A stretch of DNA of 64,000 nt from Phyllosticta citribraziliensis (lineage: Eukaryota): NCBI RefSeq assembly GCF_038025025.1, contig NW_027117350.1, positions 1-64,000 on the forward strand, written 5' to 3'. Position numbers and translations under genes: made by a program. The notes under the pieces are model-generated. The model did no database searches. It had not been told where the DNA came from and worked only from the letters and a program-made list of their open reading frames with translations. Below, piece after piece: positions 9,351 through 59,146 of the stretch (the stretch's first letter is position 1; each line of letters starts with the position of its first letter).

Positions 9351-11560
9351 TAATTATCTAGGATTAGCTAGAAGAACTAAGTAGTAAGCTTATAATAATA
9401 GGTAGTAGGGTAGAGCCTTATAACTAATTCTTATAGGCTAGTATACTAATTCTGGTAACCTAAGTGGTATACTTATTAATAAACTCCTATATAGTATATA
9501 AGAGAGCCTATTAGCCTTTAACTATAGGACTCTAAGTAATAGGGTATCTAGGAAGAGCCCTACTAGCTAGATTCCTTATACTAGCCTAGATCTTAGGTAG
9601 ATTAAACTATTATATAAAGGTAAAGATTAACTAATAGGTTAGGGTAAGGAGTAGATTCTAGAGGGACTATAGGCTAGTATTTAAGAGGTTCTATAATTAC
9701 TAAGTAAGTAGTTAAAGTCTTATAGGTAGTTCTTATTACTCTATAGTTATTAAAGTAGACTAGGTTAGATTCTAGGTATAGGAGGATCTTAGTATACTAT
9801 AGATATAGTAGAAGATATATTATATATTTAGATCTAAGTAGCTAGTATAGTAGTAGTAGAAGTAGTATAAAAAGGGGTTTAACTTATAGAATAACCCTTT
9901 TTAGCTACTAATTATAATAATCTAACTAGATATTTATAGTACTAATTTAGGTATAAGAGTTATCCTATTACTTAGGCTATCTATATAGCTAAAGTACCTA
10001 TCCCCTATAACTACCAAGCTTGCTAAGCTTACTCTTAGTATCTAATAGCTATACTAGATCCCTATAGGATCTACTGCTATATAATAGGAGGGATATTAAG
10101 ATAGTAATATTTACTAGGCTCTTCCTTCTAAGGAGGGGACCTCTATTACTTTATAGTACCCTAGATATAGTTACTAGGTAAGTTATAGCTTAGGGCTATA
10201 TTTATAATATTATTAGATAGCCTTACTAAGTTAAGGAGGTCTATTAAATTATTATTAGAACTAGTAAAACTAGTAGCTAGTTTATTTATAAAAAGTACTA
10301 GGTTAATATTATTATTAGCTTAGGTAGTAGATAACTTATTACTAGCCTAGGGGAGAGTTATTATACTAGTACTTAGCTATACTAATAAAGTACTAGTAGC
10401 CTTATTAAGTATTACTCCTATTTTATAAATAGAGTAATAGAAAGCTTTATCTATATCTTTATTAGGACCTATAATTACTACCCTAATAAAATCTCCCTTA
10501 TCTAAGTACTCTCTAAATAAGGTAGTAAACTAGCTAGTATCTATCTTTATAGGGGTATCTATTAGAGAATTATAATAAGTAGCCTATTCTAGTAGTATCT
10601 CTATAAGCTCTAAAGTAATAATAGCTATATAATATAGATATCCTTACTATAGAGACCCTTACTATATTAAGAGGTCTAGGTATAGGTAGGGTATTCTATA
10701 CTTATTATAGACTAGCTAGGTACCTATAACCTTAGGGTTATAAGATAACTTTATAATAGTAATATATTAATTAATATAATAGATTAGCTTACCTAATATA
10801 GTCTAGGTAGCTAACTTTAGTAGTAGAGCCCTATAGCCTCTATCCTTAACTACTAGCTCTAGTAGTATAATCTTAGCTAGCTCTTTCTTAAGAAAATCTA
10901 TATAAATAATACCCCTCTAAGGACCTATAATTTTTATAAAGCTACTAATATATTTTTATAAGCCTACCTTAGTATTATATATACTAATTTTACTATTCTT
11001 ATCTAGATTAAGCTTAGTAAAGTTAAAGTTACTATTAATTATATTTTATATATCCTAGTAATACTTATCTTTATACTACTAGTCCTCCTTTAATAAATTA
11101 TAGTCCCTTTTAAAGATCTAGAAGTCTTAGGCTATATTATAGCTATAACTCTTAAGATTATAGAATAAGGTTCCCTAGTTAATAGTATTATTAATAATTA
11201 TACCTAGCCTAACTAGGCCCTCTTACTATAATTTATAGAAGTTATATAGCTAGTAAATAAAATTATAGTACTTATCTAGGTATTCTCTATAGGATAAGTA
11301 GGTACTAATATAGTCTAGTATTATCTCCTAGTCTCCCTAAATAATAGTACTAGGAATATACTAGTAATAAATAAGCTCCTTTATAGCCCTATAGGGATTA
11401 GCCTTATAGGTATATTAGATAATATTAGTAAAGGAAGCTTTATAAAGATAGATAATATTATAATTAGCTAAGATAATAGTATTATTAGTATCTTTAATAG
11501 TAGTAATATCTATAGTAGGGTTAGTAAGTATATCCTCTATTATAATAGTAAGGGGGAATT
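9350..11560 (-). pseudogene. Extra ORF (ORF3) downstream of pol in element C, unknown product
   Basis: One minus frame reads as protein from ~11520 to ~10300 (e.g. GIIYIDFLKKELAKIILLELVVKDRGYRALLLKLA). A low-complexity C-terminal part follows, with a possible frameshift. Confidence 0.55.
10332..10360. promoter_or_regulatory. 29-bp palindromic site, copy 1 (element C)
   Basis: taactt-atta-ctag-c-ctag-ggga-gagtta. The function is inferred. Confidence 0.6.
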
Positions 11561-12193: not shown

Positions 12194-12616
12194 TGTCACG
12201 ACTCGCAGATTTCTCATTATGCAGGTGAGGGCTAAAGGCAAACTGCTAGAAAATATATATATATCTTAATTAAATCTAATAAGTTAAAAGAATAAAATAT
12301 AAAAGATACTTACTACTTATATATTTTCTAGTCCTTCCTTTATACTATTCTACCTCTTATCCTTTATATAAGGGTCCTTAGTTATTATTAGGTAAGTTAT
12401 AAAGGTAAGGTGTTAATAGGCTATTGTGTGGTATCTTTCTAAGGCTGTAGTAGCTAGTGCTAGGCTATAGTAGCTAGTGCCAGCCTATAGGTTTTAGCCT
12501 AAGCTATAGTAGGCTGCTGCCTAAGGTGAGGCTCGTGCTTCCTATAACTATATAATGCTAGGTTTGTCCATGCTGGCCCTAGTACTTATATAGGTATATA
12601 TATGCCTATCATGACA
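12194..12616 (-). repeat. 3' LTR of A1 (423 bp)
   Basis: TGTCACG...CATGACA, matching the three other family A LTR copies. Confidence 0.95.
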
Positions 12617-12632
12617 TGCCCCCCCTAAAGAG
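12617..12632 (-). other. Polypurine tract of A1
   Basis: The minus strand reads ...TTTAGGGGGGGCA immediately before the TGTCA of the LTR. Confidence 0.8.
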
Positions 12633-13423
12633 AAGCTGAAATCATAGGAATTAGCAGCTATAGGTACTCGCACAGGCGCAGACTTGTAATATATAATGGC
12701 AGTAATTTGGCAATTTAAGTATTCTATATACATAGTATAATTATCAGTCTAGGTCTACTACTATACTATCTCTTTCTATTACTATCTCTTTCTATTACTA
12801 TCTCTTTTACCGCGCGATCTACAGAAGGTCACTATCTTACTTAGCTATATCTAAAGCTCCCCATTAAAGTACATTATTATCCCAGTCTAATTTAGCTATA
12901 ATCTAGTAAACTAACTGTCACGCGTAAAGGTTCTAATAATTTAAATAATTTATACCCTACTAATAGTAAAGCAGACATTCCTAGCTACCATGTACTTAAT
13001 ACATCTGCTACTTATTATAGTCTAGTCTATTAGGACTCATTACTGTTATACAAGAGTTGTAGTATTAAGTTATTATTATGCAGCATTATTTATAATCCAT
13101 TACAGTTACTACTCACTTAGAGAGCTATTTTAGCCAGCAGTATCTATAAGGACCATCACATAGAGTCCTAAGGTAAGTAAACTTTAATTCTATCTCTAAC
13201 TATTACTAATTATTATCTAGGCTATTAAGTAGTATTATATATCTAGGTTCTACTACTTTATCATCCCATCTTGCTAACTAATACAATTATAGAGGAGGAC
13301 ACTTATATAAAGACTTAGTTAGGCCAGGCTTTACTTATTTAGCTAGGAATAGCTACAGGCTTATCACTTTACCTATAGTATACTACAGTATCAGGTTCTA
13401 CTTAATTAGTGTTATTAGTTGTC

Positions 13424-14316
13424 ATGTAAGGTTTATCATCTATAGCTATATAGCCTGCTACTAACTAGCCTATTATACTACATCGCTGCTGGTTCACTAT
13501 TGCGCAGCCTATTTTAGAGGAAGAAGGTAAAGAGCCTGCTTATACATGCTGTTATTATAATCCTGCAGCTCATTAGGTTCTAGTAGCTAAGTACTTACTA
13601 CCTGCTACTTTATATAATAGTAGCAACAGTAAGATTCACATTACAGCGTTGCTAGTTAGCTCTAATAAGGCACCTATTAAGTAGGACTTTAAGTTGATAC
13701 TTTACATCCCTTATAAGAATATAGAGAGTATCGTGCGAGTAAGTTTATCTTACTAATATAAGGGATTCTTATCTAACTAACTATATAGGCGCACCTTAGT
13801 AGTTCTAAAGTATAAGAGCGCGCTAAGCATATCTTGGCCTTAGGTAACAGCATACCTTACTCATATATTATAGTTTCTACTTAGTAATTTAACTACTTAT
13901 TAGTTAAAACTTAAGCTAGCTTGCGCGATACTTTTCTTATCTAGTATACCAGAATTAATAACCCTATTAGCTGCACTAAGTGTCGCGATAATACTAATAC
14001 TTATATATTTATTAGTTATTACTACCTGCCTAGTTTCTTATAGGGCTGCTGCACTAACTGCCTTTAAGGTACAGGTAACCTTAACTACACTATAAGTAAC
14101 TTAAAGGGTGCCAAGCTGCCTGCTTATTATAAGAGGCATAAAGACAAAATTTATATAGAGGAGTTCTAGAACTTGCGCTACTAAGCTAGGTTAGAGGATT
14201 AAACTAATTAGGCTTTAGCTAAGTAGGACATCCTGCTTAATAAGCTAGAGGATCTAGAGGAGATGGTCTTATATAATAACTATTATAATAAGAAGAAGGG
14301 AAAAGGAAAGAAGTAA
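13424..14316 (+). pseudogene. Antisense spliced gene in A1 encoding a Cys-rich DUF3716-like protein (~260-280 aa), RIP-disrupted
   Basis: Intron 13739-13788 (GTAAGT..CTAAC..TAG) joins two exons in frame, and there is an upstream intron at 13173-13220. The A1/A2 consensus reads AFLIQ.T..NPVSCTKCR......F.S.CHLPGF..GRCTNCL.GTGNLNC and ends KKKGKGKK*. Confidence 0.75.
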
Positions 14317-14499
14317 AGGGTAGAAATTAAAGAAGAGGATAGTAAGGAATAAGTAGTAAAAAGGAGAGACTAGAGAGTAGAAGTTAAGATTAATAGTATT
14401 TATATAAGGGTAGATAGTAAACTAATTAGTCTACTTTCTATATCTTTATAATATTTACTATAGGCCTAAGTAACTTATTTTATTATTACTTTCTATTTT

Positions 14500-17400
14500 A
14501 ATCTATAGTTCTTCTTAGAGGAAGGCAGCCTTCTATTTTTCTAGATTTTTTAGTAGTCCTGCTATGATGGGGTATAATGAGTAGAATTCTTTAATTTTCT
14601 ATAGTGCTCTACTAAAAGAACTTATATTATACTACTAGTTATCTTAGTTATATCTAGTCTATTTAACTTGGTATTAAAGCTTCCTATATAAGACTTGACT
14701 AGCTTAAATATAGTCTACTTCCTACTTAGGCTTATCTTAAATAATCTTAGGTTTAGGTTTAGTATAGTCCTAACTAGGAAGCTGTTCTATTTTGGCCTTA
14801 TATAGCCTGTTAGTATAGAAAAGATTAACTATCTTTATATATAAGGGAAGATTAAGGATATAAGAGGGTCCTTCTATTCCTATAATCTTAAAAGGTCTAG
14901 TATTAGGGAAGTCTAATTTAAGGTTTAGCTGATTAGTAGACCATCTGGTTTTCTTAATATAGATATAATCTCTAACTATAAAGTCTAGCGCGCGACGGTA
15001 TTTATTAGCTTATTAGTATATATACTCTTAGGATTTAAGAATAAGATTCTTTATAAATTTAAAAGCTTCTTATCTTCTCTTTTATAGTGTTTATACTACT
15101 ATGCGAGCTATCTTTTCTAGTTACTAGGGGGTCTCTGTTCTTTATTACTAGTTGTAGTGTATTTAAGGGGAATATCCTAACTTAATCTTAAAAGGTAAAA
15201 GTCTAGTAGCTTTATAGGGAAGTGTTACTTGTGTAAGGTCTATTAATAGTAGAAGATTAGACTAATTATTCTGAAAGTAATTGATAAAAGGTCTTAATCT
15301 TTATATAAGATGCTGATTAATAATCTCTATAATACTATTAGTTTAAGAGTGGTAGGATGAGTTAAAATACTACTCTATACTAGTTAGCTTATATAGTTTA
15401 TTTATAAATGCTGAGATGAACTAAGGGCCTTAGTTAGATAGGATAGACTTAGGGTTTCTATAAATATAGTAGATATGTTTATAAAAGAGTCTAGAGACTC
15501 CTTTAGTATTAATCTTCTTTATATAAGGTAAGCTAAAGGTTCTTTAACTTAACTAGTCTATAATAACTAGGATTGTATTGTAGCCTTTTTAGTTTTTAGG
15601 CATCTCTTTAAAATCTATGGCTAAGTGTTGCTAGGGTTGAGTAGGAATCTCTAGGGGTTATAGAAGGCCTAGGTCTTTATTATAAAACTCTTTTATTTAG
15701 CAGTAAATATGGCATCCTTGCCTGTAAATATTAATTATGTGATTTATAGCTGGCTAGTAGTAATATTACTTAAGGAGTTTTCGCATCTTTATAATACTAG
15801 GATGGGTGGTTATATAGGTAGTATATAAAGTGTTAAGCATTCTCGCGCGGAGGTTATTATAATCTAGTATAAAGAGTATACTATATTATAGTAAAAGACT
15901 ATCCTTTAGTTCCTAACTATTTCTTTATTTAAGGTCCTTTAAGAGGGCTTTCTATCTTTAGAGTTCTAATTTAGAATTTTCCTAGTTTATATGGAGGAGT
16001 TTATTTAAAAATAATACTAGAGGAGGAAGTTCTTATTCTAAAATAGAAAGAGGGATAATAGTCTCTAGTAGGATAAGGTATATCTCTTATATAGCTCTTA
16101 CCTTTTCTTTTTAAGTCTTTAAGTCTTCTTATTTTTAAGTAAGGTAATTAGCGATGATATTTTCCTTTCCTAGTTAATAGGAGAATTATATGTAGAACTC
16201 TATAAAAAACTTAGACTATCTAGCTTGTTATTAATTAAGTTGTTGTTTAGTAGAGTAGTACTCTAATGCCTAATAGTCTATAATTGCAAGAAAAGGTTTT
16301 TTAAGGCTAATAAGTATTAGTCTCTATTCTTCTAGTCTATTCTTAATAGCTAGTAGTTCTTTATCTGAAATTCTATAATGAAGTTCTGCGTCTACTATTA
16401 CCTTAGAGTAGAATGCTACTAGTTTCTAATTGCATGAAGGTTGCTAGAGCTGCATTAAAATGCTAGTAGTAACTCTATTACTTGTATTAGTCTCTATATA
16501 AGTGTTAAGAGTAGGGTTATAATTGGCTAGGAGTATATTACTATATATTAGCTTCTTAAGTTATTAAATTGCCTCTTCTTCTAGGGGTCCTAGTTGTTGC
16601 TATTTTGCCTTAGAGTATAGTTTCTCTAATAGCTAGCTGATTTATCTATAGTTAGGGAGAAATTGTTAGTAGAAATTATAGAAACCTAGGAAGGATTAAA
16701 GAGCTTTAAGGGTTTTTAGTATTAGCTAGTTTTATATAGGTTCTACCTTATCTAGGTCTATTTAAATGCCTTCTATAGAAATGATGTATCTAAGAAACTT
16801 TATATGAGTAACTAAAAACTCGCTCTTCTTTAAATCCACCTATAGTCCTGCTTTTTATAGTCTTACTAGTACTTTTTTTACTTGTTCCTTATGCTCTGCA
16901 GGGTTTTTAGAGATAATAAGCATGTTGTCTATAAAAGCCATAATAAAATTGTCTAAATACTTAAAGAGAACCTGGTTAATGAAACGTTAAAAGGCTATAG
17001 GTCTGTTGCTTAATCTAAATAGTAAGATATGGTATTTAAATAAGCTGTATCTTATATAGAAGGTAGTCTTGTCTTTAGAATCCTTAGTAAGATGAATGTA
17101 GTGGAAAGCTTATTAAATATTAAGCTTAGTATAAATTTTGCCCTTTCTAATGCGCTAAAGCAACTCTATAATAAGAGGAAGGGGGTGTAAATCCTTAGTA
17201 GTTTATTTATTAAGCTATTAGTAGTCTATGTAAAATCTCTATCCCCTACTAGGCTTTTTTACTATAAGAATAGGAGAAGTATAGGTGGTAAAGCTCTTAG
17301 TAATAAAGCCTTTCTAAAGGTTCTTAATAATATACTCTTTTACAGCCTTAAGCTGCTCTAGAGACATTCTATAGAGAGGACTAGGTAGAAGCTCTAGTAG

Positions 17401-17922
17401 ACTATTATATATAAGAGATATTTTATAATTAACCCCCATGTAATATGGTAGTAGCTTATTAGACTCTATTTTAGAAAACACATCTTAAAATTCCTTATAA
17501 GTGGCTAGTAGCTTAGAAGCTAGTAATCCCTTAGTTTCCTTATCTTTAAGAGCTGCTTAAACTTGTATAAGGTTAATAGTGTAGATCTCTATTGGCGTAA
17601 CTTGTATTTTATAAATAGAAAGCTTAAATATATCTTGAGTTTAGAATTCAATTCCCTTAATAACCTGTACTAAGGGAAGGAGGTGTTTATTAAATTTTTT
17701 ATCTCTATAGTCTATATCTACTTGGTATTTTTTCTGCAGTTCTTTACTTTACACAGAGATTTTTAGTAGGTGTAGAAGATGCTAAAAGGACTAGTTGACT
17801 AGTAGCTGTCTCTAGACTAGTTTATATCATTTATAGTCTAGGAGGACGTCGTGCTAGTTAAAAAACTGTTACCTAAGAATCATGTTATTATAGCTAATAT
17901 TACAAATAAAAGCATAAGTAGA
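14500..17922 (-). pseudogene. pol remnant of A1 (partial PR, RT, RNaseH, IN, chromodomain)
   Basis: RT motif YLDNFIMAFIDNMLIIS at ~16910-16960. Chromodomain (de-RIP EWEVDHI..SRV...KLQYQVKWTG) at ~14550-14730. Confidence 0.88.
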
Positions 17923-18335
17923 TGCAGATTTCTTATTATACAGGTAAGGGCTAAAGGCAAACTACTAGAGAATGCGTATATATCTTAATTAAATCTAATA
18001 AGTTAAAAGAATGAAATATAAAAGATACTTACTACCTATATATTTCCTAGTCCTTCCTTTATACTATTCTACCTCTTATCCTTTATATAAGGGTCCTTAG
18101 TTATTATTAGGTGAGTTGTAAAGGTAAGGTGTTAATGGGCTGTTATGTGGTATCTTCCTAAGGCTGCAGTGGCTAGTGCCAGGCTGTAGTGGCTGGTGCC
18201 AGCCTGCAGGTTTCAGCCTAAGCTATAGCGGGCTACTACCTAAGGTGAGGCTCGTGCTTCCTATAACCGCGCGATGCCGGGTTTGTCTGTGCTGGCCCTA
18301 GTGCTCACATAGGCGCGTGTATGCCTATTGTGATA
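17923..18335 (-). repeat. 5' LTR of A1, lacking ~10 bp at its internal edge
   Basis: Matches 12204-12616 and is joined directly to protease-region sequence. Confidence 0.9.
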
Positions 18336-18489
18336 TATACTTACTTAGAATATTATAGGATATATATACCCTTTAGGATCTTAGAGTATATAATCCTAGT
18401 TTTAGGCTAGGGTCTATTTAATAGGTATAATAGGTATAATAGTTAGTCCTACTAGCTCTTACTAGTTCTTAGTAGTAGGTTAATCTATT

Positions 18490-20148
18490 AATAGACTATA
18501 TTAGCTAGATCTTTATCCTTATTAGTAAACTTCTTAAGCCTATCTTCTATAATTAGATTTATAGCCTTCTCTCTACTAAGTTCTTTAAGCTTATAAGTAT
18601 TAGTTTCCCTATTAGCCTTATAGATCTTAAATAGCCCTTTCTAGAAGAAGTAAAGCTTTATATTATACTTATCCTTAAGCTTAGTATAGTAGAGTAGTAC
18701 TTAATTTCCCTTATTAAATCCCTTATCTATTACTTCTCTAACTTATAGATAATAGCTATTAAACTATTCCTTATTCTACTCCTATAAGTAATATACTTAT
18801 AATATAGTCTCCTAGAGTTTCTTATTATATAAGTTAATCTACTTTACTTATAGGGCTAGTAGGTCTCTAGTATTCTTTATATCTTACTATAGTATAAGCT
18901 ACTATATAGGTATCTCTATTTTAATAGGGAGTATATAGTCCCTTCTATATAAGACCTCTATAGAAGTTATTCTAGTTATCCTATAAATTATAGTCTTATT
19001 AGCCTATAGGATACTATAAAAATATAGCCTCTAAGGCTTAGTACCTCTAGTAGATAGCTTAGCTAGTATATTATTAATTTACCTATACCCTCTTTTAACT
19101 ATACTATTTAACTCTAGGTAGTATACTAAAATATTAACCTTAGATATATAATATAGTTCTATAATAAGTTTAGTATAGCTTAGGTTCTTATTATCTCTAT
19201 TTATAATAAGGTATTAAAAGGTACTATAGTAATAAATTAGCTCTTTATATAAGAAGTTAGCTACTAGGGTAGCTTTTAATAAGTATAGGATTTATCCTTT
19301 AACCTAGCTAGAAACTACTTCTTATATATTAATATAGAAACCTCTAGATATATAGATAATATCTATATACTACTTATTATCTAGGATTAGTATCTTAAGG
19401 GATAGGTAAAGGGCCTCCTTATTATATAATAAACTATAAAATATATAGGTCTAATAATCTTAGTATTCTTACTTATACTTAGCCTATAGTCCTTCTTAAA
19501 AGTACTAATTTAAGACTTTCCTAAATATTCCTTCTTTAGTATAATAGCTAAACTTATAGTATAGCTATTATACTATCTATTTTTAAGCTATAGGATTATC
19601 TACTACTTATTTTAATAGTATATTCTTAGATAATTACTAAAATAGGTATTAGTTATAGATCTAGTACCTATAGGCCTTCTATTACTATTTTTAGGCCTCT
19701 AATTATATAACTTTAGGTAAGAGTAGTTTATAGGTAATAAATTTAGCTAGGTCCTTAGATTCTTAGGAGTACTCCTTATATAGTACTCTATATAGAATAA
19801 CCTCTCCTAGTAGGCTAGAGGGGCCTAGTACTAGTATTTAATTAGCTAATATTAACTCTCCCCTAGTCTAGTAGATAGTTAGTAGAAGGTCTATAGAACT
19901 AATTATATATATACTTAGCTATAGGGATAATAGTAGCTTATCTATTTTATCTTCTATCTTTTTTACTTATTTCTATAGGTCTTCCTTATTTAACTCCTTA
20001 AAATTTAGCCTTTTTAATAGAGTATCTACTACCCTATTCTTTATCTTAGTAATATATAGTATCTTAAAATCCTATATAGATAGCTAGCTAAGCTACTACT
20101 TAAGGACTCTACCTATTATAAATTTAGTCCTATTATTTAGGTAGTCTT
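18490..20148 (-). pseudogene. pol 3' part of element C (RNaseH end and integrase with GPY/F-type C-terminus)
   Basis: De-RIP reading GDWVLLY...WKGPFKI...YKLKEL at ~18570-18710. Confidence 0.8.
19853..19881. promoter_or_regulatory. 29-bp palindromic site, copy 3 (element C)
   Basis: taactc-tccc-ctag-t-ctag-taga-tagtta. Confidence 0.6.
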
Positions 20149-20321
20149 TATTATAAGTTTAGTTAGGATATCTTTTCTTAAGTAAGGATTATATTATTAT
20201 TATTTCTATCTTAGCCCTAGGGCCCTACTTATTCTCATCTACTTACTTATACTACTAAGCCTACTAGCTAGTACCTACCTTACTTATCTAAGGTATCCCT
20301 AACTATCTACAGACTATAATA
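20149..20321 (-). repeat. 3' LTR of B1 (173 bp)
   Basis: TATTATAAG...CTATAATA (RIPed TG..CA), matching 31840-32012. Confidence 0.93.
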
Positions 20322-20462
20322 GTAGTAGCTAAAAAAGAAAGTTATCCTTAACTTAGAATTTACTATCCTCCTCTACCTATTAAGAAATATTCCCCTCCTA
20401 GGATAAGTAAAGAAAGAAAAGGAAAATTAGAAAGAAAGAAATAGATCTATACTAGGATATAT

Positions 20463-23390
20463 TTAATTACTAATATCCTTATCTTTATCTATATTAGACT
20501 AGTCCTTACTACCTATTATATTATTATCTTAAGGTAGGGCTAATAACTAGATAAGGAGGTTTTTCTATATATTAATACTATAACTACTTTTACCTTCTCC
20601 TAGTATAGGTATATAATATATAGTAATACCTATATCTATATAGAAATTAGGGTAAAGGTATCCTAAAGGAATATAGCCTATAAACTAATTAGTAAATCTA
20701 ATATTAGTACCTAGGAATTATTACTCTAGGCTATCTATATCCTATAATATATATAATATAAGTAGTTATAGGGTAAGTAGTCTAGTAACCTATATATATT
20801 TTAGAGGGTCCTCCCTAATATATTAGATTAGGTAGTTTAATCCTATATAAAAAGTAAGGTTATTAACTAGTATAGGAGTAATAAACTTATTAGGGATAAT
20901 TCCTCTAATAATAAGGTATATAGCTTAGTAAGGGTCTATTATAAGGAGTATAGCTATTAGGTCTATATATTAGTAGAGAGAGCCTACTTTACCTAAATTA
21001 GGGTATTAATATACTATATAGCTCACTAAGTACTCTAGGAAAGTAGCTATACTTAGACTAATAATATTACCTTAGTTAATAGGACCATCCTTAGGGATTA
21101 AGGGGTCTTTTATACTAGTATTAGATCTAATATACTTACTATTATTATTAGGTTTACCTAAAAGTAGCTTATCCTAAGTTATAAGTAGGGTATTATTAGT
21201 ATCTACTATAAATATAGTATAGTTAGGGTAGTCTAAGTAAACCTATAGAATAAGCTTATCTAGGCCTTTAGGTTTTATATCCTATAATATTATATCTTTA
21301 TTAGGAGGGGGTATACCTTAAAGTATTTCTATAAGCTCTACCTTATTATTATTAATAGGACTATTATATTAGTACTAACCTACTTCTATTCTAGAAGTAT
21401 AGAACCTAGTACCTATAAACTACTTATTCCTATTTTTTATAAGGGTAGTAGTAAATATATAGAGCTCTATAAGTAGTATATTACCTCTTATTATATAATT
21501 TATTATAAGAGTATAATAGCCTACTCTATCCTATATTTCTTACTTATAAAGGTACTACTTTATACCCTTAAAGACTAGGATATCTTTATATATAGAGAAA
21601 AGTAGTCTATTATAATTATAAATAGTAAGGCCTCTTATTACCTAGGGATATATCTTATTAATATTAGGGTTACTAGGCTTCTTTTTACTAATATACTTAT
21701 TATAGCCTTCTCTACTAATAAGTCTATACTACCTTATAAGTATTATATATTAGATCTTACTATCCTTATCTTAGTAATATAAGGCCTATCTATTAGGGTA
21801 ATAATATAGGTTTAGTCCTCTATCTTTATAGTAAAATAGCTAGAGTTAGTAGAGGTTATAGAACTTAAAATCTATTATTACTTAATAAGCTAAATAATAG
21901 AGGGTACCTATTATTATAGAGAATAGGCTTATACTAGGTAGGGAAAGGTACTAATCTTTAATAAATATACTTAAAATATAGTTAATAATAGGAAAGTTAC
22001 TAGTATCTATAAGGAATATAGTATCCTAGTCCTATTTATACTCTATAAAAGTCTTAGGGTTATAGAATAGATAGTATATACTTTTCTTTAGGAATAACTA
22101 GTCTCCTATTTTATCTTAGGGATTAACTACTACTAGTTTATCTAGTATAATATTAGGTATACCCCTTAGTTTCTTTAATTATATAATAATATTTAGTATA
22201 CTAGTAGTCTTCCCTATTTTCTTTATCTTCTATAATATAACTAGTCCTTTAAGGTCTACCCTTTCTTTTCTCTACCTTAGTATTAGGGTATCTAGGAATT
22301 CCTTTCCTAAATCTATATTATTATTAGAAACTTAGGGTATATATTAAATTATAGTTATAATAATTTTATTAGTATTATAGGAAGTATTAATAAGTTAGTA
22401 GGTTTACTTTCTAATAGCTAAATTCTAGGCCTATAGGTCTATATTAGTAATATCTACTATTTTATAGCTTACCTTAACCTATAAAGTTACTCTAATTATA
22501 CTAAAACTAGGAGGTATTTATATTAGGTAAGAAGCTAGTATTCCTATACTAAGAAGGCTTATAGCTAGATTAAGGGTAAGACTAGGTTAAGGTATAGTTT
22601 CTAATAAGAAGATAGGTATCTACTATCTCTTATCCTTAGTATCCTCCTCTAATTCTTTAGTAGTAAAGTACTTATACTTATTACTATAATTAGTATTATA
22701 CTCCCTTATATATATTTCTAGTATACTACTATCTTTATTACCTTAGTAAAAGCTATAGCCCTAGTATCCTAAGCCTCTAGCCCCTAATATACTATATCCC
22801 TATATAGTTATAGAGGTAGAAGGTAGTATATTTATTATTAATATATCTACTATCTATATTATAGTATTAGTATATAGGATAGTTATAAAGGGGTCTACTA
22901 TCTCTTCATTATTAATAACTTAGTTTAGTATATCCTATTATAAATACTTACTAGTATTAAGAGAGAAGTAGTTATTCTATACTTCTATTCTAAGGATAAT
23001 ATTATTTTACTTAAGGGTAGGTATACTATTACTAATAGTAGGGGTATTATTTAGTATTATATCTACTAGAGGAACTATACCTATATTAGGTACTATATTA
23101 TAATTATTATATAAAAGGTTTTACTATTCTTATAGGTTAGTAATATTTATTAGGGTAGTACTAATAAGTCTATTCCTATTATAGTCTAAAGGCCAACTAT
23201 ATTAGTCTCTTAGGTAGTTTATATATTTATATTATAGATAAGGTTATATAGTAAGGTTAATATAGGGTTATAAGTTAATATCCTATAGGGCCTAGTATTA
23301 ATTAGGTATATATACTATAGCTAGTATTAGTTACCCTACTAATATATAGCCCTCTTCTTACTTAGTAATACTTATATATATAAAATATTT
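20463..23390 (-). pseudogene. ORF3 of B1 (unknown product)
   Basis: Reverse complement of the B2 ORF3 at ~46200-49090. Confidence 0.6.
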
Positions 23391-23759
23391 TTAGTAGTAA
23401 TATCCTCCTAGGCCTCCCTTTATTAGGAGATACTTAGGTATACTATATTAGCTCCCTTTATAAGGTAGGTACTAATTTAGTACTCTTTCTTAGTAGTTTA
23501 GGGTTTCTTATCCTTATTCTTTATATTTAGTAGATAACCTTACTACTTTAATACTATAGGGATAGCTATTTCTAGTAGTATATATAGTAGTTTATTATAT
23601 AATAGCTTATCCTATAATAATTTATTATATACCTTAGTAGGTAGTAGCTTATCTATATTATTATTTTCCTTTAGGTCCCTAGGTATAATAGTAGTATATT
23701 AAGGTAGTCCTAATTTCTATTAGGGCCTATACTAGTCTAGCTTTACTATTATCTCTTTA

Positions 23760-26700
23760 TTTAACCTTATATTATATTTTTTAATAAGATCTATTACTCC
23801 TTCTAAATTATTTAAGTTATACTATACTTAATACTATAGCCCCTAGCCTTTCTAGTTAACTAAGTATTATAATTTTCTAGTCCTATAATATTTATACCTA
23901 TTTACTAAGTATAAGATTTTATACTTAGGTACTAGCTTATTAGTATTAATAATAGGTCCTAGCTCTAATATAGTATTATACTTAAAAGGGTTAGGACCCT
24001 CCTTTTCCTTTTTTAATTAGGAGATATTAATAACTAGATAAATCCTTAAGCTACTAGGGATAGCTAGTTTATAGGCTTATATACTAATTACTTATATTAC
24101 TTTATAAGGTCTAATATATATATTCTAGAATTTCTATAGTAGATTACTATATACCTTATATCTATAGTATAACTATAGATATACCTTATCTCCTAGTTTA
24201 AACTAGACTAGATAGTACTTACTATTATATTACTCTTTTTATATTACTACTATAAAAGTAAGGGCTTCTTAAGCTTTAGTATAGTAGTTTAAATAGAGGG
24301 TTTTTAAGTTTATATCCTTAGTAGATTCTACCTAGTTATACCTATTATCTTATAGGTTAAATTTATATAAGATTTTATAAGGGGTATATCCTATTAAGGT
24401 ATTTTAAGAAGAATTTATAGTCCCTTAAATATAAGGGAGAGTATCTACCTAACTCTAATTAGGGTTAGTTATAATGAAGAACTATAGAGTAATTTTTACT
24501 ATCTAGTTAATATACTTACTTTACCTATCTATCTAGGGATAGTAAGTAGTGGTAATATTTAGGTTAATTTTTATTATCTTAAAAATACTACTTATAAATT
24601 ACCCTAACTAATAGGAGTCCTAGTTTATAATTATAATAGAAGGTAGACCTTATCTATATCTATAGAGTTCTTTAAACTATAAACCTTCTTAATTACCTAT
24701 AGTCTAGGTCTTTTAACTAGGGATTAGTAAGATTACTTTAGAAAATTTATAGGTTATAATTAGAAGTATATTAAAACCCCCTTTATTATATATAGGTAGC
24801 TTAGTAATAAAATTAATATATATAGTAAAGAAGGGGACCTTTACTACTATAATAGGGACTATTAATCTATTAGGTTTATATTAAGGTATTTAATTTATAT
24901 AATAGTTAGGATAGTAATTAATATATACCTATACCTACTAGTGTAGGTACCTTATATAGTAGTAAGTATAAATGTAATCTATATATTAGTCTATACCTTA
25001 GTAGAAGTACTAATTATAGGCTTATTTAAATACTATTTATTTATAGCTTTAGGGAATATATAGTTATTCTTACTAGTCTCTTAAGTAGTTTATAAAGTAG
25101 ATTAACCCCTTTTATAGGAAGAAGTATAGATTAGGGACTAGTTCTTTATAGGAGTCCTTATTTTCTTCCTTATTAATAAGGGGAATAGGCTCTACTGTAG
25201 AGGTAGGAGTTAATATAGTTAGTTTAGTAGCTATAAGGAGCTCTAGTTCTGTAGGTATAAGGTTTATACTAATAGGTTAATCTATAGTTATTTTAGGGCT
25301 TACTAGCCTATAGTTATATTCCTACTACTACTTAAGGGCCTACTCTAAAATATAGAGTACCTTTACCTATTATATATTAGTACTATATACTATATAGAGC
25401 TTTTATTTAAATTTATTAAAGAGCTCTACTAATACTATATAGAAGTAAGTAGTAGAGTTACTATCTTTTAAGGTATATTAAACTAGGTCCTTATTATTAG
25501 GGAATTCTATACTATTAAGGGTGTTATCTATATCTATAGTTACCTTAGATAGTAATTAGCTTAGGGTATTAGGAATAATATAGTTTCTCCTTAATTAGTA
25601 TTATACCTTTAAAGGATACTAGCTTAGGTACTAGCTAGTATATATTAGATATAGGTTTAATTATTCTATAGATTAGGAGTTTCTAAAGTATAATTAGTAT
25701 ATAATAGTAGTAACTACTAAGTAGTTAGTAAATACCTAAGTATCTTTAGAGGCCTATATAAGTATTTATAATTTCTTAACTACTTAAATAACTCCTATTA
25801 TTTTAAGCTTAGTTATCTAGTATCTTATCTTAGCTCTTAAAAGATACTAGGATAGGAAGGCTATTAGCTTAATAGACTACTTTAAGAAGTCTTTAGCCTT
25901 TTTAAGCTAATTTATAGTAGGGTTTTTACCCTTTATATTCTCTATATTTATAGTAGGAGTCTAATCCTCTATAACTAGTTTAGGATTATCTTTTATATAG
26001 TAGGCTATTATACTAAAGCCTAACTCTTTACTAATATCTATATTAATAAAGAGGGGTCTCTTAGGTATATAGTAAAAATACTATTATATTTTATAAAGGG
26101 TTATTTATATAGCCTTAAATAATACTACTAGTACTAGGGAGTCTAGTAGTACCTATACTACTATATATTAATAGTATACTTATTTATCTTTAGAAGTACT
26201 TTATAATAGTATAGTCTTTATAGCTTCTAGTAGTTCTACTAATTATATATAGTAGGGATAGTTATCCCTTAACTAGCTAGTAAGTTTTATAAAGGTTTCT
26301 AGTTCTTAGAGGGTCCTTAGGAATTTAAGATCTTTTAGAGCTTAAATCTTAGCTTCTAATATTATAATACTAAATCTAAATACCTACTATTTTAATAGTA
26401 TAATAGATAGGTATCCTAACTAGGACTTCTTAGTACTTAGGCTTATATTTATACTATTAAGGATAGTAAATACCTTTTTAAGGTAATCTAGGTATTCTTC
26501 TAATATTTTAGAGAAAATAGTAATATTATTAATATATATTTATATAAAAGTATAGTAGTCCTAAAGAAGAGTATTATACTACTATTATATATACTATATA
26601 GAGTTATAGTATCCTATTAGGGCTATATTTAACTATTTAATACCTTAGTAGGTAAGTATAATTAGCTTATATTAATTATTAGGATAGATCTACTATTAAT

Positions 26701-29700
26701 AGAAGAAAGAGATAGTATCTACTACTAAAATATAGAGATAGCCCTAGATATTAGAGATAATATTAGTAGCTAAAGGAAGTAGCTATAAGTCCTTCTTATT
26801 AATAGTATTAAGGGTTTATATATCTATAACTACTTATCCTTTCTACTCTAGAATCCTATTCTCTCTAGGGACTAGCTTCTATACTATAAATATAGAGAAG
26901 CTAAGATAAGTATCTCTATATACCTATTCTACTTTTCCTTATTTATATATAGGGTTAAGTATAGTATCTTAGAATTTATAGTCCCTTTAAGATATAAGGT
27001 ATAGTCTTTAATATTTAAAATATTTATACTAGCCTAGGATTAATAGTATCTTTATCTAATCCTTTTTAGGAACCTTAATAAATCCCTTTTAATTATAGAA
27101 AAGATCTTAAAACTAATCTATTAGTTTTTAGTATAGTAACTAGATCTTAGGGGTCCTAAATATAGTAATACTATTATTAAGCTTAACCTCCTCTATAATA
27201 GGGATAGTAGGATTTAAACTAGCTAGGCTATATTCTATATCTATAAGGTAGTATACCCTATTAAATTCTATAGTAATAATACTACTTAGTTATATATTCT
27301 AGGAGATTATAAGAGACTAATCTAAGTTATTTCTAGTAATAATTTAGTTTATATCTATACTAGTAACTATAGTATAAAGGGTACCCCCTTTTTATAGGAA
27401 GGGTATAGGATATATAGTTTTATTAGGATAGAACTTATATACTTAGTAAAGGAGATCTAATCCTAGGATTTTAATAAGTAGCTTTACCTAGGACTATAGG
27501 GGTATTATCATATTCTTTATAGTATATATATATTAGTAGATAGGAGTAGAAAATAGCTTAGTTATTATACTAATATTTAGGCCTTCTAGCCCTATATATA
27601 GCTATACTACCTAGTTCTAACTAATATTAATAATTACCCCTTTAGGATATAGGAGGTTATTTCCTATAAGTAGAGGGATATTTAGCTTATTAGTTACTTA
27701 AGTATAATAGGGAAGAAAGCTAAGAGCCTATCCTATCTTAGTTTATCTAGATAAGTAAAGAGGAAGTATTATATAATTAGTATATTCTATTTTATATCCT
27801 ACTTTAGTAATAATTATAGATTTCTTAAGTATTATTACCTTAATATTAAGGAGCTTTTCCTTTAAAAATATTCTATTTACTATTAAGGATAAGGTACCTA
27901 TATTAAGGTACCTAATATCTACTATTCCTATAGGGGTTAGCCTAAAACTAATTTCTATTAATTAATATTTAAGAAATAGAGATAGGTTATCTCCTATACT
28001 AAGTCCTATAAAGGCTATAGATAACTCTAAGATTAGTACCTTTAATTCTATATTAGCTATAGCTTTATCCTTTATCTTTCTATATTTATTATTAACCATA
28101 TTAAGCCCTAATATAATAAGGTAGGCTATCTAGTAATACTATCTTCTACTAAATATAGGAGTACTCTACTTATAGCACCATATTACCTATACTATAAGGC
28201 TAAGAGGAAAGATTAATACCTACTAAAGGGCTATAACTACTAGAGTAGGGATATACTAAGAGGGAATAATATATTACTTAATTTTATTATCCTAATAGCT
28301 TTTAGGTACTAGTTACCTACTAACTAAATAGTACTTTATTTAGGTCCTAAGTTCTTAAGTAGCTTAATACTAGCTTAATTTAAACTATATTTAAAACCTA
28401 TATCCCTTAGGTACTAATATAATTTATATTTAAAAGGGAAGCTTATCTAGTAGCTATTATATACTTTTTAGAGATTAAGTACTACTATATTATTATTAGG
28501 AGTATAGTTAAAAGTATTATCCTAGATAAGTATATATCTATACTAAGAGTAGTAGTTAGCTCCTATTATAATTATAGGCTTACTATTATTTAACTATAGT
28601 TTCTCTTTATTAGTTATAGGTATCTCTATACTAGTATCCTTATTACTTTTAGTATCTTTACTTCCCTTATAGGTATCCTTATACTTACTTTTAGAACTAT
28701 CCTAGGTATAGTATTATATATATATAGTTAGTTTATAGTTATAGTTATAGTTATAGTTATAGTTATAGTAATTCTTAGGCTTTAAGTAGGACCTAGAACT
28801 AGACCCTTTTAGGTTAGGAGTAGGGAGTATACCCTACTTAAGGTAGGTTACCTATTTTATATTATTTAGTCCCCTAGTACTTATATTATACTAGGATACT
28901 AAGTATACTCTATTAGATTAATTATATAGCTAGCTAGTAGTCTATATTAAGGTGTATCCCTCATTCTAGCCTTTAGAGAAGAATACCTTACTAGTAGTAG
29001 TTATATTAAAATATTAGGATAGGTATTCCTAAGTCTACTAGTAACTCTTAATATTCTTAATAAATACTTAGATAATAGTATTTACTATTAGTTTAGGGAT
29101 CTACTACTAGAAATAAGGGTTAATATATATATAGGTATTAGCTAACTAGTTATATATAGTAGGGAAACTAGTAGCTTATCCTAGATATATATAGGTAATA
29201 ATAAAGTCCCTTATACTTTTAGTATAGACCTCTAAGAGCCTAAAGTATACTCTATTTAGTACTTTAATAGCTTTATATTATATTATACTAAAGTCTTTAT
29301 ATAGTAGTAAGGTCTAATTATTAATACTATATCTAGTATATATAAAGGCTTAGTCTTCCTCTATAAGTTAGGAGGTATACTATATATTTAATAATCCTTT
29401 TAGGTACTTCTATAGGTTAGTATAGATTAGATCTACTCTATAGGTAGTATAAGCTATTAAAGTACTATTAATAAACTATTTTATAGTATAGTATAAGACC
29501 TTCCCCTATTTAGTTATACTACCTCTATACCTAATATCTTCCTCCTATAGGTTAGGGTTAAAGTAACTAATATTATCTAGGTAGAAATACTAGGTTATTC
29601 TTCTAATATATAGTCCTAATACCTAGTTATACTCCTTATTATTACCTATACCCTATAGGGGAATAAATTAAAAGGTAATAGATTATTTATCCTCTTCTCT

Positions 29701-30100
29701 ATTCTTAGGAGGAGGAGAGCTTAGTAGGAGTAGCTCCTCTATTTTATACTAGGTATACCTTTTCTAGTATTTCTATCCCTAGTTTTTACTAGAGAAATAA
29801 TTTCCCTCCTATAACTATAGTAGTCTTAATACTACTTAGCCTCTACCTTAGGGTATACTTATTTTAAGTATAGATAGGTATATACTAAGCTTCTTAAGTT
29901 ACTTATTAACCCCCTTATTTATTATAGTAAGGTTTATTATCTATACTTTCTATTATTTAGAGAATATATCTTAGAGTATATCTAGCTTTACTCCTAAAGA
30001 TTCTAGGGTTATAGTAGGCTACTAGATCTCCTTAGTCTAGTCTATAATACTATACTAATTATATATATATAGTAGTATTATATTATATAGGGGTAGCTAG
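23760..30100 (-). pseudogene. gag-pol remnant of B1 with C-terminal chromodomain
   Basis: RT and chromodomain motifs, colinear with B2. Boundaries are approximate. Confidence 0.85.
28738..28767. repeat. (GTTATA)5 microsatellite in B1 gag
   Basis: Read directly; same position in the element as 40745-40846 in B2. Confidence 0.9.
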
Positions 30101-31091
30101 TTATAGTATATATACCTTAGGGGAGGATTCTAGTTTTCTAGTAGCTATTAATAGGAGATAGGAAGACTACTATATAGGTATTAGCTAAAACCTAGACCTA
30201 TACTACTCTAGAAAATATTAGGTAGTTAATTAAAGGGTTAGTAAGAGTAGCCTTAAGGAGGCCTATAATTAGGTAGGAAGGGAGGTTATTTAAATTAGCC
30301 TTTATAAGTATAGCTAGTACCTTTACTAAAATTTAGTAGAATATACTAGTCTTTAAAATTATTATCTATAGAAGAATAGGGACTCTATAGATTATATTCT
30401 AGCTTATTATCTATAAATAGGCTACTAGTATAGGTAGCTAGCTACTTTCCTTTAAAAGGTTTTAGTTAAGAAGTATAAGGGGGTATTACCTACTTATCTT
30501 AGGGTTAATATAGCCTTATACTTATATATATCTATAACCAGAGTTATTAATAGGTATATATAGAAGTAGAGTAATATAAAGAAGATAACTACCCTTAAGT
30601 TAGTATAGATATTAGTAAAATAGGTTATTAAGGTTCTATAGATAGTATAAATTAGGGATAAATTAATATATAGTATAGAGATTTTAATTAAGGTTATCTA
30701 TAAAGTAAGGTAATAGGTATTTATACCTAAGAAGAGGGGGGATCTATTAAGTAGGTAATTAATTAGCCCCTTCCCTATTTAGATATAGTATAATTACTAA
30801 TAGGAGGAGTAGGTCCTAATAGTTTCTAGGTTAACCCTAGTAGAACTTCTAGGGTAATTATAGTAGGCCCTAGTAGTAACTAGGGTACTATCTTAGCTTA
30901 TAGCTAAGAAGGTACTTTAAGGACTATACCTAGGGCTAATACCTCTAGTATAGTAGGATATTCTAGTATAATTAGAGAAAAGTACTAGAATAGATTATAT
31001 AGGAACTAGGATACCCTTAAGCCTATACTTATATTATATTAGCCTACCTCCTTATATAGTATAATTAGGACTAGGTTTAGTAGTAAACCTA

Positions 31092-31181
31092 CTATATTAG
31101 TAGATATTAATATACTTAGTATTATAGTCCTTATACCTATATTAGTAGATATTAGTATACTAGGTATTATAGTCTTTATAC
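31092..31181. repeat. 45-bp tandem duplication in the B1 5' leader
   Basis: ctatattagtagatatta..atac occurs twice, at 31092 and 31137. Confidence 0.8.
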
Positions 31182-31822
31182 CCTTAGCTAGAGCCTCTTC
31201 TATATATTCCTATTTTATAGCTACTAGGTAATTCTCTAGGAATAATTTAATATAAGTAGTATTAACTTATTCTAAGGCTTATTAAAAGGTAGCTTAGTTT
31301 ATACCTCCTATAGAATCCTAGTATACTAGGTAATCTAGGTACCTTTAAGATACTATAGCTTATTAAGTAGATACTCCTATACTACCTAAGGGCTTAAATA
31401 TTTCTATAAGGAGGTTAATATAGGTCCTTACTACTAGGGTAATCTATTTAAGCTATTATTTATATTTACTATAATAAAGGAAGGCCTTAAGCTACTAGGT
31501 AGATAGTATATCCTCTTCTAAAATTAGTATAGTAAACTTATTTATTTAGGGACTATATTATAGACAGTTCCTTATACTAGTACTATATATTAAAGGGAAA
31601 GGTAAGTATAGTAGAAGTAAGGGTCCTACTATAATAATACTAGTACTAGGTTATATAAGAAGGGAGATCCTTACTAGGTACTATATAGAAGTATATTATT
31701 AGCTATTTTAAGGGGATCTTCCTAGGTTTTAGTAGAAGTAGACTTATAGTATTTATATATTAGTAGTAATAAAGGTCCTAGATATAGAGGGGATACTATA
31801 GTAAAAGGAAGTACTATAGTAC

Positions 31823-31834
31823 TTTTAGCTACTA
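31823..31834 (-). other. Putative primer-binding site of B1 (TAGTAGCTAAAA; de-RIP TGGTAGC...)
   Basis: Lies 5 nt downstream of the 5' LTR on the coding strand. Confidence 0.55.
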
Positions 31835-31839
31835 AATAA

Positions 31840-32012
31840 TATTATAAGTTTAGTTAGGACATCTTTTCTTAAGTAAAGATTATATTATTATTATTTCTAT
31901 CTTAGCCCTAGGGCCCTACTTATTCTCATCTACTTACTCATACTACTAAGCCCACTAGCTAGTACCTACCTTACTCACCTAAGGCATCCCTAACCATCCG
32001 CGGACTATAACA
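31840..32012 (-). repeat. 5' LTR of B1 (173 bp)
   Basis: Ends ...GGACTATAACA, followed by the TSD GTCTT. Confidence 0.93.
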
Positions 32013-35000
32013 GTCTTATAGGATATAATAGTCTATTTTAATAAAGAAGTACTATCTAAATAGCTATAGTTTAAATCTAGTAATTATATATATTAGTACT
32101 TAGTATTCTAGCTTTCTAGAGTTATAAAATAATTCTATCCTAGACTAAATACTACTCTTATACCTTACTAGATACCTAGTACTATCCTTTTCTTATATTA
32201 AAACTACTCCCTATCCTATACTACTACTATCTATAGCTATTATAATATCTCCTATAGACTCCTCTCTATATATAATAGATACTAAGGTAGGTACTATTAT
32301 AATAGCTTCCTTAATTTTAGCTATAGCTTTATTATACTTACTTTTCTAAGTAAATAGTATATTCTTCCTTATTAGAGTATATAGTAGTACTACCTTATAT
32401 AAGTACTCCTTAACCTAGTAGTAAAAATAGGTAGTTACTCCTAAGAAGCCCTTTAATAATTTAAGGTCTTAGGAAGTATCCTAATTATTAATCTTACCTA
32501 CTTTAGACTTAGTAGATAGGTATCTAAACTCTCTATATCTAAACCTAATAACCTCTACTTCTAGTATATTAAAGAAGGACTTCTCTTCTAAGATTATAAG
32601 TCTAGCTAGTTCTAGATTCTATAGTATATTATTAATATCCTAGATATACTTAAGTATAAATTACCTAACTCCTATAACTATACTTTCTATATTATTATAT
32701 TAGCTCCTTTACTAGCCTCCTATAATATTATTTATAAAAAGGTTAGCCTTATCTTATTAGTTATCTAGTATATATCTTAGGCTATAAACTACTTATCCTA
32801 GAGAATTAGTTATACCTTAAGAAAGTATAAAGTTATACTAGTATCTCTAGGGGGTAATAAATCTAGTAAGATCCTAATACTTTTTAGTAACTATAAATTA
32901 ATTAAAACTAGAGTATAGGTCTATAAGGGTATATATTATAAGGCCTCTTTAGTACTCTATATAATTATTTATTAGTCCTAGTATACTAGTATCTTAAATA
33001 GTAATATTATTTAGTATTTATAAATTATTAATCTACCTATATATACTATTCTTCTTAGGTAAGACTATCTAGGGATTATAATATTAATTAGAGTAGTACT
33101 TAATAATTCCTATATCTTACTAAGTAGTAAGTAAGTTAAATATATACTATATTTTAGCTTATAAAATATATAATACTCTAACTCTCTAGGCCTTATATAG
33201 TATTATCCTAATAGGGAACCTATATATTACTATTAGCTTAATTTATCCTATTTCTAATAGGTTAAATAAGATAGTACCTTCTCTACTATATAGTATTTCT
33301 AGTATTAGTTCCTACTCTCTTAGCTAGAGGTTATCTCTAGTGATAAGGCTAGTTAACCTTTCCTATATAAGGTATATACCTAGTTAAAAGATAGTAATTC
33401 TTAAATAGAATAAGTAGGTAAATTATCCCTAGCCCTAGAGATCCCTTATTAGTATAGTAGTCTACTTAGTAATTATAGTCTCTTTAGTCTTTTATCCCTT
33501 AATTATATTTAATAACTCTTCCTATAGTATTAAGTTATCTATAGGCTCTATTTTTATACCTTTTTATTTATATACTATATACTAGTATAGGTTTTATTAT
33601 CTAGTAGTATTAAGATACTTAGGAAATATACTATACTAAGATACCTTATAATAAATAATACTCTATTCTCCTATTATATATATAGTTAAAAATATATTAT
33701 CTAATATTAAATTAGTATTTTTAGTATTTTATTTATTTTAATTATATAGGCCTCCTACTAATTAGTATAGTAATTATATACTAATTAGCCCCTAAATTAT
33801 TATACTAGCTAGTTTCCTAGCCCTACTACTTATATACTATTACTACTTTAGATTCTAATAGGACTAATATAGTATATAGTATCTTTAATACCTTTAATAA
33901 ATAGGAATGCCTAGTAGGTAATAATCTCTATATAGTAGTAAGGGTTAATAGGGTAGGTAAATCTTAGCTTAACTACTCTAATAGGTATAGTTTTAAATTT
34001 ACTACCTACTAAGATAATTTAAGGTATTCCTAATATAATAGGGATAGTAGTTTAATTATATACTAGGAAATAAGTATTCTAGGACTAATCTCCTATTTAA
34101 ATAGCTAAACTTAGGATCTATTATTTAATTTTATACTTTAAACTATTTATAAATCCTATAGTTATATTAAAACTATTAGGTAGTATATCTTATACTAGGA
34201 TACTAAGTTTAGCTATAAGGGCCTTAGAAATACTATTTATATTTACTCTAGTATCTACTAGTACTTATACTATATAGCTACTAAAGGATACTAGGATAAA
34301 GGATAATAGGATATAGTAGATAATAAGGCCCTATTATTTAGCTAGTATTATAACCTCTTTATAGGTTATTAGCTTTAGCTTATAGTCTCCTCTAGTAGTT
34401 ATAGAATTCTCCTAACCCTTAGGTAATTTAATACTAAAGTATATCTTATATATTAATAGGTCTATAGGCTTACTATCCTAAAGGGGCTTATTATTAGGCC
34501 TATATAAAATAAAGCTCTAAGTAGGTATATACTTTATAGTATATACTAGGCTTATATATATATAATTAAAAACTCTAGAGATAGTTTTACCCTTAGTAAC
34601 TAATATATTAATTAGTATATTTAAATATATAAAGATCCTATCTAGGAAATAATCTTCTTACTTAAATAGGTAATACTAGGAGAAGTTAAATTCTATAGGC
34701 TTATTAAAGGAGTTAAACTAGTACCCTTTAATATTATCTACTAGTTCTATATATATAGTATATATTAGCTTCTATAGGTCCTCTATTATATATAGGTATT
34801 TATTTAGTACCTATAGGTTATTATAAAGTATTTCTTAGACCTCTTCTATAATCTTAGTACTAATAGGAGTATAAAATAACTTCTATATATTATTATATAG
34901 GTTAAGGATTCCTTTTATATACCTAATAGTCTCCTTATTAAAGATATCTCTATATCTCTAGCTATTTAGACCTAGTTTATACTACTTATAATAGAATAGG

Positions 35001-49090: not shown

Positions 49091-49230
49091 AATATATCCT
49101 AGTATAGACTTATTTCTTTCTTTCTTTACTTCTTTTCTTTCCTTTCTTATCCTAGAAGGAGGATATTTTATAATAGGTAGAGGAGGATAGTAAATTCTAA
49201 GTTAAGGATAACTCCTTTTTTAGCTACTAC

Positions 49231-49402
49231 TATTATAGTCTATAGATAGTTAGGGATACCTTAGATAAGTAAGGCAGGTACTAGCTAGTAGGCTTAGTAG
49301 TATAAGTAAGTAGATAGAATAAGTAGGGCCCTAGGGCTAAGATAGAAATAATAATAATATAATTCTTACTTAAGAAAAGATATCCTAACTAAACTTATAA
49401 TA
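49231..49402 (+). repeat. 3' LTR of B2 (172 bp)
   Basis: Reverse complement of 20149-20321. Confidence 0.92.
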
Positions 49403-50007: not shown

Positions 50008-50294
50008 TATTAGCTATTAAGGTAAGTTAGTATAGTTATTAACTCTATTATCTATTATATATTAATAGTAAGTAGCTATAACTATATAAGGCTTAAAGAG
50101 GTAAGTACTATATTTAGCTAACTAAAAGTCTAAGGTAAAGAGAAAAAGGAGAAGTAGTAAGTACTAAGAAGAAGGTAGAAATATAGTTATAGTAGGCTAA
50201 TTACTTAGCCTACTAAGTAAGTATATAGTTATATACTTACTTATACTAGGTTAGGTTCTAGTAAACTAGTCCTTATATAGGTATAGGCCTAATA
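50008..50294 (-). repeat. Probable 3' LTR of E (left edge uncertain)
   Basis: TATTAG...CTAATA terminal inverted repeat next to the PPT GTAGAGGGGGGGGTAG. Confidence 0.6.
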
Positions 50295-59145: not shown

Positions 59146-59146
59146 C

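Follow-up and report, generated by a model that had tools for sequence, protein, structure and literature searches.

A tRNA-iMet-like site in place of a polypurine tract at the 3' LTR of RIP-degraded fungal Ty3/gypsy elements

The window, a stretch of 64 kb, is the start of a contig in a genome of 31 Mb. CpA, TpG and CpG are nearly missing from the dinucleotide content of the region of interest, which is the signature of fungal RIP. This region holds B1, an 11.9-kb Ty3/gypsy element destroyed by RIP, which lies on the minus strand at 20149-32012. Its features, together with those of related copies in the window, are listed in Table 1.

Table 1. Positions of B1, its parts and related copies in the 64-kb window
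Feature	Position	Strand	Evidence or remark
Target-site duplication GTCTT, 5 bp	20144-20148 and 32013-32017		both outer LTR sides
B1 3' LTR, 173 bp	20149-20321	-	93% identity to 5' LTR
Spacer C, 1 nt, between tRNA-like site and B1 3' LTR	20322	-	13/13 family-B 3' ends and relic L027
tRNA-like site, B1	20323-20335	-	fits host tRNA-iMet (L064/L065) over 13 nt with RIP tolerance; other tRNAs at most 7 nt (59 genes)
Purine run, 9 nt	20366-20374	-	~45 nt upstream of 3' LTR, not abutting
Third sense ORF, RIP-broken, ~900 codons	20460-23200 (bounds approximate)	-	frame periodicity
pol, RIP-broken: RT, RNase H, integrase, SH3, chromodomain-like end	23771-27211	-	tblastn with P0071; Pfam
gag and protease, B1	upstream of pol, up to ~31200	-	
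PBS for tRNA-iMet, B1	31820-31834	-	15-nt RIP-tolerant complement of L064/L065 3' end
LTR-PBS spacer, 5 nt, B1	31835-31839	-	hypervariable between copies
B1 5' LTR, 173 bp	31840-32012	-	
tRNA-like site and C, 5'-truncated copy B2	49217-49230	+	
B2 3' LTR	49231-49402	+	
Family-T copy: 5' LTR (9913-10081) and 18-nt iMet PBS	9893-10081	-	

When the minus frame of B1 was read with its stops as X, Pfam recognised SH3_Tf2-1 (E = 6.7e-7) and RT_RNaseH (E = 0.016). On the same strand, tblastn placed residues 286-691 of the intact relative P0071 at 25979-27211, followed by residues 693-1381 at 23771-25891. By P0071 mapping and Pfam, RT, RNase H and integrase stand in the gypsy order. The coding strand being the minus strand by both lines of evidence, 31823-31834 is the PBS and 20323-20334 precedes the 3' LTR; the opposite orientation is ruled out by the strand of pol. 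The alignment of the pol frame extends as far as residue 1381 of P0071, a protein with PF00385, and Pfam gives no chromodomain call on the RIPped frame of B1. A scan with the RVT_1 profile missed family B owing to RIP. In the less-RIPped copies of the family, LTR starts in TG and ends in ..ACA are still seen, and matching 5-bp duplications are present in 8 of the 10 paired copies. A DNA transposon with nested 12-bp terminal inverted repeats was rejected as a description of the locus, since the interior is gag-pol, the duplications lie outside the LTRs and the two repeats stand at different distances from them (1 and 5 nt).

The third ORF, which follows pol in family B, has a weak match in family S, a second family of the same genome (E = 3e-8; L028:6401-6568, minus strand), and neither a Pfam family nor a database homologue was found for it. 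Its last ~55 codons are open in the un-RIPped relic L027, and families S and T show a like frame periodicity in the region after pol. Atlas searches returned only generic RT clusters or no match. Within its gag-pol, family B also has a trinucleotide repeat, which is much longer in B2 (~40700) than in B1 (~28700), where it is short.

An earlier sequence-only reading of this DNA had described an exact 12-bp inverted repeat at the inner LTR edges of B1. The repeat was recovered as described, with TAGTAGCTAAAA at 20323-20334 and TTTTAGCTACTA at 31823-31834, and its counterpart in B2, TTTTAGCTACTAC, is present at 49218-49230. The offsets given for it, 1 nt from the 3' LTR and 5 nt from the 5' LTR, agree with the LTR borders and with the flanking GTCTT. 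Four instances of the 12-mer are present in the window, where 0.57 would be expected, and 0 of 100 shuffles reach 4; the count is not independent, as three of these instances belong to copies of a single family. All four lie at LTR junctions, the fourth being the PBS of a family-T LTR. Taken by itself, the 9-mer core is no commoner in the window than chance predicts (31 observed, 29.3 expected); therefore, the signal is carried by position and not by frequency.

The same reading held that no polypurine tract (PPT) adjoins the 3' LTR, and this is borne out by all 13 family-B 3' ends, in which the last 15 nt contain 4-5 purines. The relic has 6 purines in these 15 nt, versus 12 in PPT-bearing relatives. 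RIP changes only C to T and G to A and thus keeps the identity of purines and pyrimidines, so that a purine tract can be neither created nor erased by it. Elsewhere in this genome, further LTR families have kept clear, G-rich purine tracts despite RIP. Nested gypsy elements in the window, examined as controls (50083-64000 and beyond, 12205-18336, and 51332-59570), have ordinary G-rich tracts and are without an iMet PBS. The survival of purine tracts against RNase H has a mechanism based on composition. Some 45 nt before the 3' LTR, and thus not abutting it, there is a purine run of 9 nt in B, 13 nt in the relic and 7 nt in S; family T has no purine run longer than 5 nt in its last 100 nt. Thus, B shows the LTRs, the duplication, the order of pol and the tRNA PBS of a Ty3/gypsy element, but not the hallmark PPT abutting the 3' LTR.

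The 3' ends of the host tRNAs, with CCA added, were compared with both sites, the set consisting of 59 genes from 61 tRNA matches in the genome. Three of the genes are presumably Met tRNAs of the initiator type, to judge from traits that include the A1 start and the AUCG T-loop. Both sites had been proposed to be of the initiator-tRNA type, and this holds: with RIP tolerance, L064 and L065 match the 3' site over 13 nt and the PBS over 15 nt. Only iMet fits among the 59 genes, the best non-iMet match being 7 nt. The relic L027 agrees exactly with tRNA-iMet over 10 nt, for which RIP tolerance is unneeded. At 0-5 nt from a random point in RIPped DNA, the background match rate is 5e-4 for 13 nt and 3e-3 for 11 nt, and 18 nt with one gap are matched in 24 of 235,200 cases, the pool for these rates including the true sites.

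The genome search for family B yielded 13 5' ends, 13 3' ends and one relic. Every one of the 3' ends terminates in TAGCTACTAC, and the PBS is exact over 13 nt in 11 of 13 copies, with one more transition in the other two. The spacer between LTR and PBS exists in five variants among the 13 copies, with transversion differences at 3 of its 5 columns versus 0 of the next 55; such variation may be the mark of errors at the second strand transfer. The 2-nt LTR-PBS spacer of family T varies too.

Two related families carry the same arrangement. In family S (12 kb; ~67% DNA identity to B over pol), 3 nt separate the tRNA-like site from the LTR in 6/6 3' ends, and the PBS is present in 6/6 5' ends. 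Family T (11 kb) has the site 2 nt before the LTR in 10/10 3' ends and the PBS in 9/9 5' ends, each of these two sets including one pair of identical duplicates. The offset from the 3' LTR is constant within each family (1, 3 and 2 nt in B, S and T), and the corresponding PBS offsets are 5, 3 and 2 nt. The LTRs of the three families show no significant mutual similarity (best E = 0.03), and their last 600 nt show no collinear similarity. An R/Y-coded tree of codon positions 1 and 2 of the RT-RNase H region, built from 23 rows and 458 codon columns, groups B, S and T in a single clade with a UFBoot value of 93, deeper nodes being weak (64-69).

The relic L027 is a single un-RIPped 3' fragment with 75-81% identity to B, and the only one of its kind found in the genome search. 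Its junction reads TCAGCTACCA-C, followed directly by the TG of the LTR, 10 nt being the same as in tRNA-iMet. The de-RIPped form that had been proposed for the site therefore exists naturally. One low-depth contig from run X3 aligns across the relic junction and then continues into little-RIPped B-like sequence, which lends weak support, the differences near the contig end being unlisted. The fragment (L027:1478-1980) comprises the LTR, the 3' UTR and the end of ORF3 in unique DNA, ends abruptly at a GA repeat, and is in runs X1 and X2 too. Genome-wide, exact TTCAGCTACCA has 20 matches versus 34 for a control pattern, and the 25-nt flanks of these matches show no recognisable LTR junction.

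Intact relatives are found in a large group of fungal polyproteins of ~2,000 residues (3,144 matches among 7,999 scored), which are ~30% identical to RIPped B. Searches of metagenomes gave 22 loci, in 6 of which LTR pairs are readable (L084, L086, L088, L089, L091 and L092). All of these except L084 belong to one intact ~7-kb family with the canonical Ty3/gypsy layout, iMet PBS and PPT included, represented by four full-length loci and one deleted copy. L084 is intact-ended, 7.3 kb long, and has an iMet-type PBS; before its 3' LTR there is a pyrimidine run, with neither a PPT nor a tRNA-like site (L084:9653-9692), and the 3' end has no match among the 59 tRNA ends of the host genome of B. It follows that loss of the tract can occur without the tRNA-like site, and L084 possibly has another non-standard plus-strand signal. 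The R/Y tree took in 11 of 24 outside loci, namely those covering most of the region, and none of the metagenome LTR-pair loci included fell inside the B/S/T clade. L096 is a degraded relic. Two loci came from bacterial genomes, neither with both LTRs, and 0 of 31 viral-contig candidates were related; thus, metagenome, bacterial-genome and viral-contig loci yielded no intact member of the clade with both LTRs. The fungal-type gypsy pol seen in two bacterial metagenome-assembled genomes (L104:10001-13366 and L105:303-2729) is most likely contamination. On present data, the tRNA-like 3' site is limited to the B/S/T branch in one genome.

In B, S and T alike the PBS matches tRNA-iMet. In R/Y pattern, the 3' site agrees with its own PBS and with the best tRNA over 13 and 13 nt in B, 9 and 11 nt in S (the latter with isoacceptor L063), and 12 and 12 nt in T, where a one-base gap gives 0 R/Y mismatches in 18 against the tRNA versus 2 against its own PBS; the margin for the tRNA is small, being 2 RIP-tolerant bases in S, 2 positions plus the assumed gap in T, and none in B. 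Primer sites normally correspond to a tRNA stretch of about that length, ~18 nt. The PBS is the same in B and S, but their 3' sites differ, which means that the two sites do not co-vary. Since, in addition, the 3' sites of S and T are nearer to the tRNA than to their own PBS, the inverted repeat is best explained by two separate matches, each made independently to a single tRNA, rather than by self-pairing. The earlier suggestion that the 3' segment of the RNA itself pairs with the PBS is weakened by this lack of covariation and by the better fit of the S and T sites to the tRNA. Nor is there support for a contribution from a partial hairpin at 49176-49229, as its folding z-scores (0.32 in B2, -0.34 in B1 and 0.04 in the relic) are no better than those of shuffles.

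The tRNA-like 3' site is real, conserved and very probably functional. The evidence is the sequence of one genome in which all full B, S and T copies are dead. A second tRNA-iMet would probably anneal to the minus-strand cDNA and prime the plus strand. The earlier suggestion that one primer starts both DNA strands is the best reading of two sites matching tRNA-iMet, and would be the probable one. In the first step, which is canonical and is suggested by the PBS, tRNA-iMet would anneal 2-5 nt past the 5' LTR and start the minus strand. Once the minus strand had been copied past the 3' LTR and the RNA removed by RNase H, a second PBS would be exposed 1-3 nt outside U3, from which a second tRNA-iMet would start plus-strand strong-stop DNA. 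RNase H would then take off both tRNAs, and integrase would trim the 1-5 extra bases to leave TG...CA. The 3' end of a primer needs to lie within a few bases of U3; the distance from the CCA of the tRNA-like site to the LTR is 1 nt in B, 3 nt in S and 2 nt in T, in a mirror image of the PBS offsets. Taken to its furthest, the model would allow priming by the second tRNA on an antisense transcript as well, either strand then being usable as template.

A tRNA primer and a fragment of the genomic RNA with the same sequence are indistinguishable by sequence alone. The site may be a self-encoded mimic of the tRNA, with RNase H cutting the genomic RNA after the CCA and the surviving fragment priming the plus strand. 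Such a mimic predicts the same position and sequence and makes a second tRNA unnecessary, and the cutting of RNA into a primer by RNase H is described for Tf1 in the available part of PMC7175516. The explanation is nevertheless unlikely: purine tracts resist RNase H, according to the same partial source, but a B-type site has only 4-6 purines in its last 15 nt, and the match of family T to the tRNA out to ~18 nt is left unexplained.

It is rather improbable that the 3' site instead pairs with its own PBS, whether for cyclisation, as a dimer contact or as a minus-strand self-primer, while the plus strand is primed elsewhere, for instance at the upstream purine run. The complementarity reaches 12-13 nt in B and 12 nt in T, genome cyclisation signals are known in Ty1 (PMC6844567, in the part available), and the purine run ~45 nt upstream is shared by B, the relic and S. 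However, the complementarity is only 9 nt in S, the two sites are without co-variation, and the T site agrees with the tRNA where the T PBS departs from it. Moreover, priming 45 nt upstream would shift the LTR edge, but the LTRs begin with TG beside 5-bp duplications in 8 of 10 pairs, and the run is missing in family T. A chance match made by RIP, or a non-functional scar from one ancestor, is largely refuted and very improbable, because, although RIPped DNA contains the 9-mer core as often as chance predicts and B, S and T are related, the un-RIPped relic carries the site exactly, the site was kept while the LTRs and the last 600 nt lost collinear similarity, the background rates are 3e-3 to 1e-4 per family, and no purine tract is left for priming. 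B, S and T represent a fungal Ty3/gypsy lineage of 11-12 kb, putatively of the chromodomain type, that lacks a PPT and most likely used the host tRNA-iMet twice. In size, these elements may be like RLG_Rolly.

Known systems are compared here as far as the available portions of the sources describe them. Like the canonical Ty3/gypsy elements (Ty3, Tyl3 and the fungal chromoviruses), B has TG...CA LTRs, a 5-bp duplication, RT-RNase H-integrase and an iMet PBS near the 5' LTR; unlike them, B, S and T are without a PPT, have a tRNA-sense copy 1-3 nt before the 3' LTR, are 11-12 kb long and carry a third ORF. Tyl3 has a 14-nt iMet PBS at a 2-nt offset, a possible bipartite site and a tract of 13 purines (PMC5014426). 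The bipartite tRNA-iMet PBS of Ty3 and Tyl3 resembles the present case in that a second tRNA-related site lies near the 3' end (PMC5014426), but their patches complement the tRNA on the genomic RNA and occur together with a PPT, whereas in B, S and T the RNA strand itself carries the sequence of the tRNA end. In Tf1, the first 11 nt of the transcript, which lie within the 5' LTR, make up the PBS complement and substitute for the tRNA in priming the minus strand (PMC7175516). With Tf1/sushi elements the B/S/T lineage shares a putative place in the fungal chromovirus group, probable non-standard priming and an element-borne PBS complement (PMC7175516, PMC6317226, the latter covering PBS types in plants); in contrast to Tf1, the complement lies outside the LTRs, at the position of the plus-strand primer, and the PBS fits a host tRNA. 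Membership in the Tf1/sushi self-priming group was rejected, since the PBS-complement core is not in the LTRs of B, S and the relic (one permissive, RIP-tolerant 9-mer is present in the T LTR) and the PBS fits tRNA-iMet. The fungal GalEa elements likewise conserve reverse-complementary motifs at the priming position, but they are copia elements in which a local hairpin at the 5' end replaces the PBS and not the PPT (PMC5445492).

The available parts of PMC3248453, PMC4210507, PMC7207207 and PMC13728883 contain nothing on a tRNA-sense site replacing the PPT, and no element with such a site was found in the literature searched, which takes in few subscription papers and Repbase reports. Fungal clades are treated in PMC2864245, seen in part, whose supplements tabulate the structural characteristics of 150 families, with a possible bearing on the novelty of the site and on the name of the clade.

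In LTR retroelements, the plus-strand primer regarded as standard is a purine tract that withstands RNase H (PMC7175516, PMC6317226, each as partly available). The tRNA-sense site that takes its place in B, S and T thus appears to be a variant of the Ty3/gypsy priming signals that was not found described, its mechanism being deduced from the sequences. On balance, it seems probable that in this fungal Ty3/gypsy lineage the PPT was dropped and both strands came to be primed by tRNA-iMet, so that the two ends would be mirror images in their priming. If this is true, a natural swap of the PPT for a second tRNA site would mean that plus-strand priming is replaceable, and the lineage would offer a clean test system for the handling of primer ends by RT, RNase H and integrase. 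In that case, the whole clade would be misjudged by LTR-finding tools for which a PPT is obligatory.
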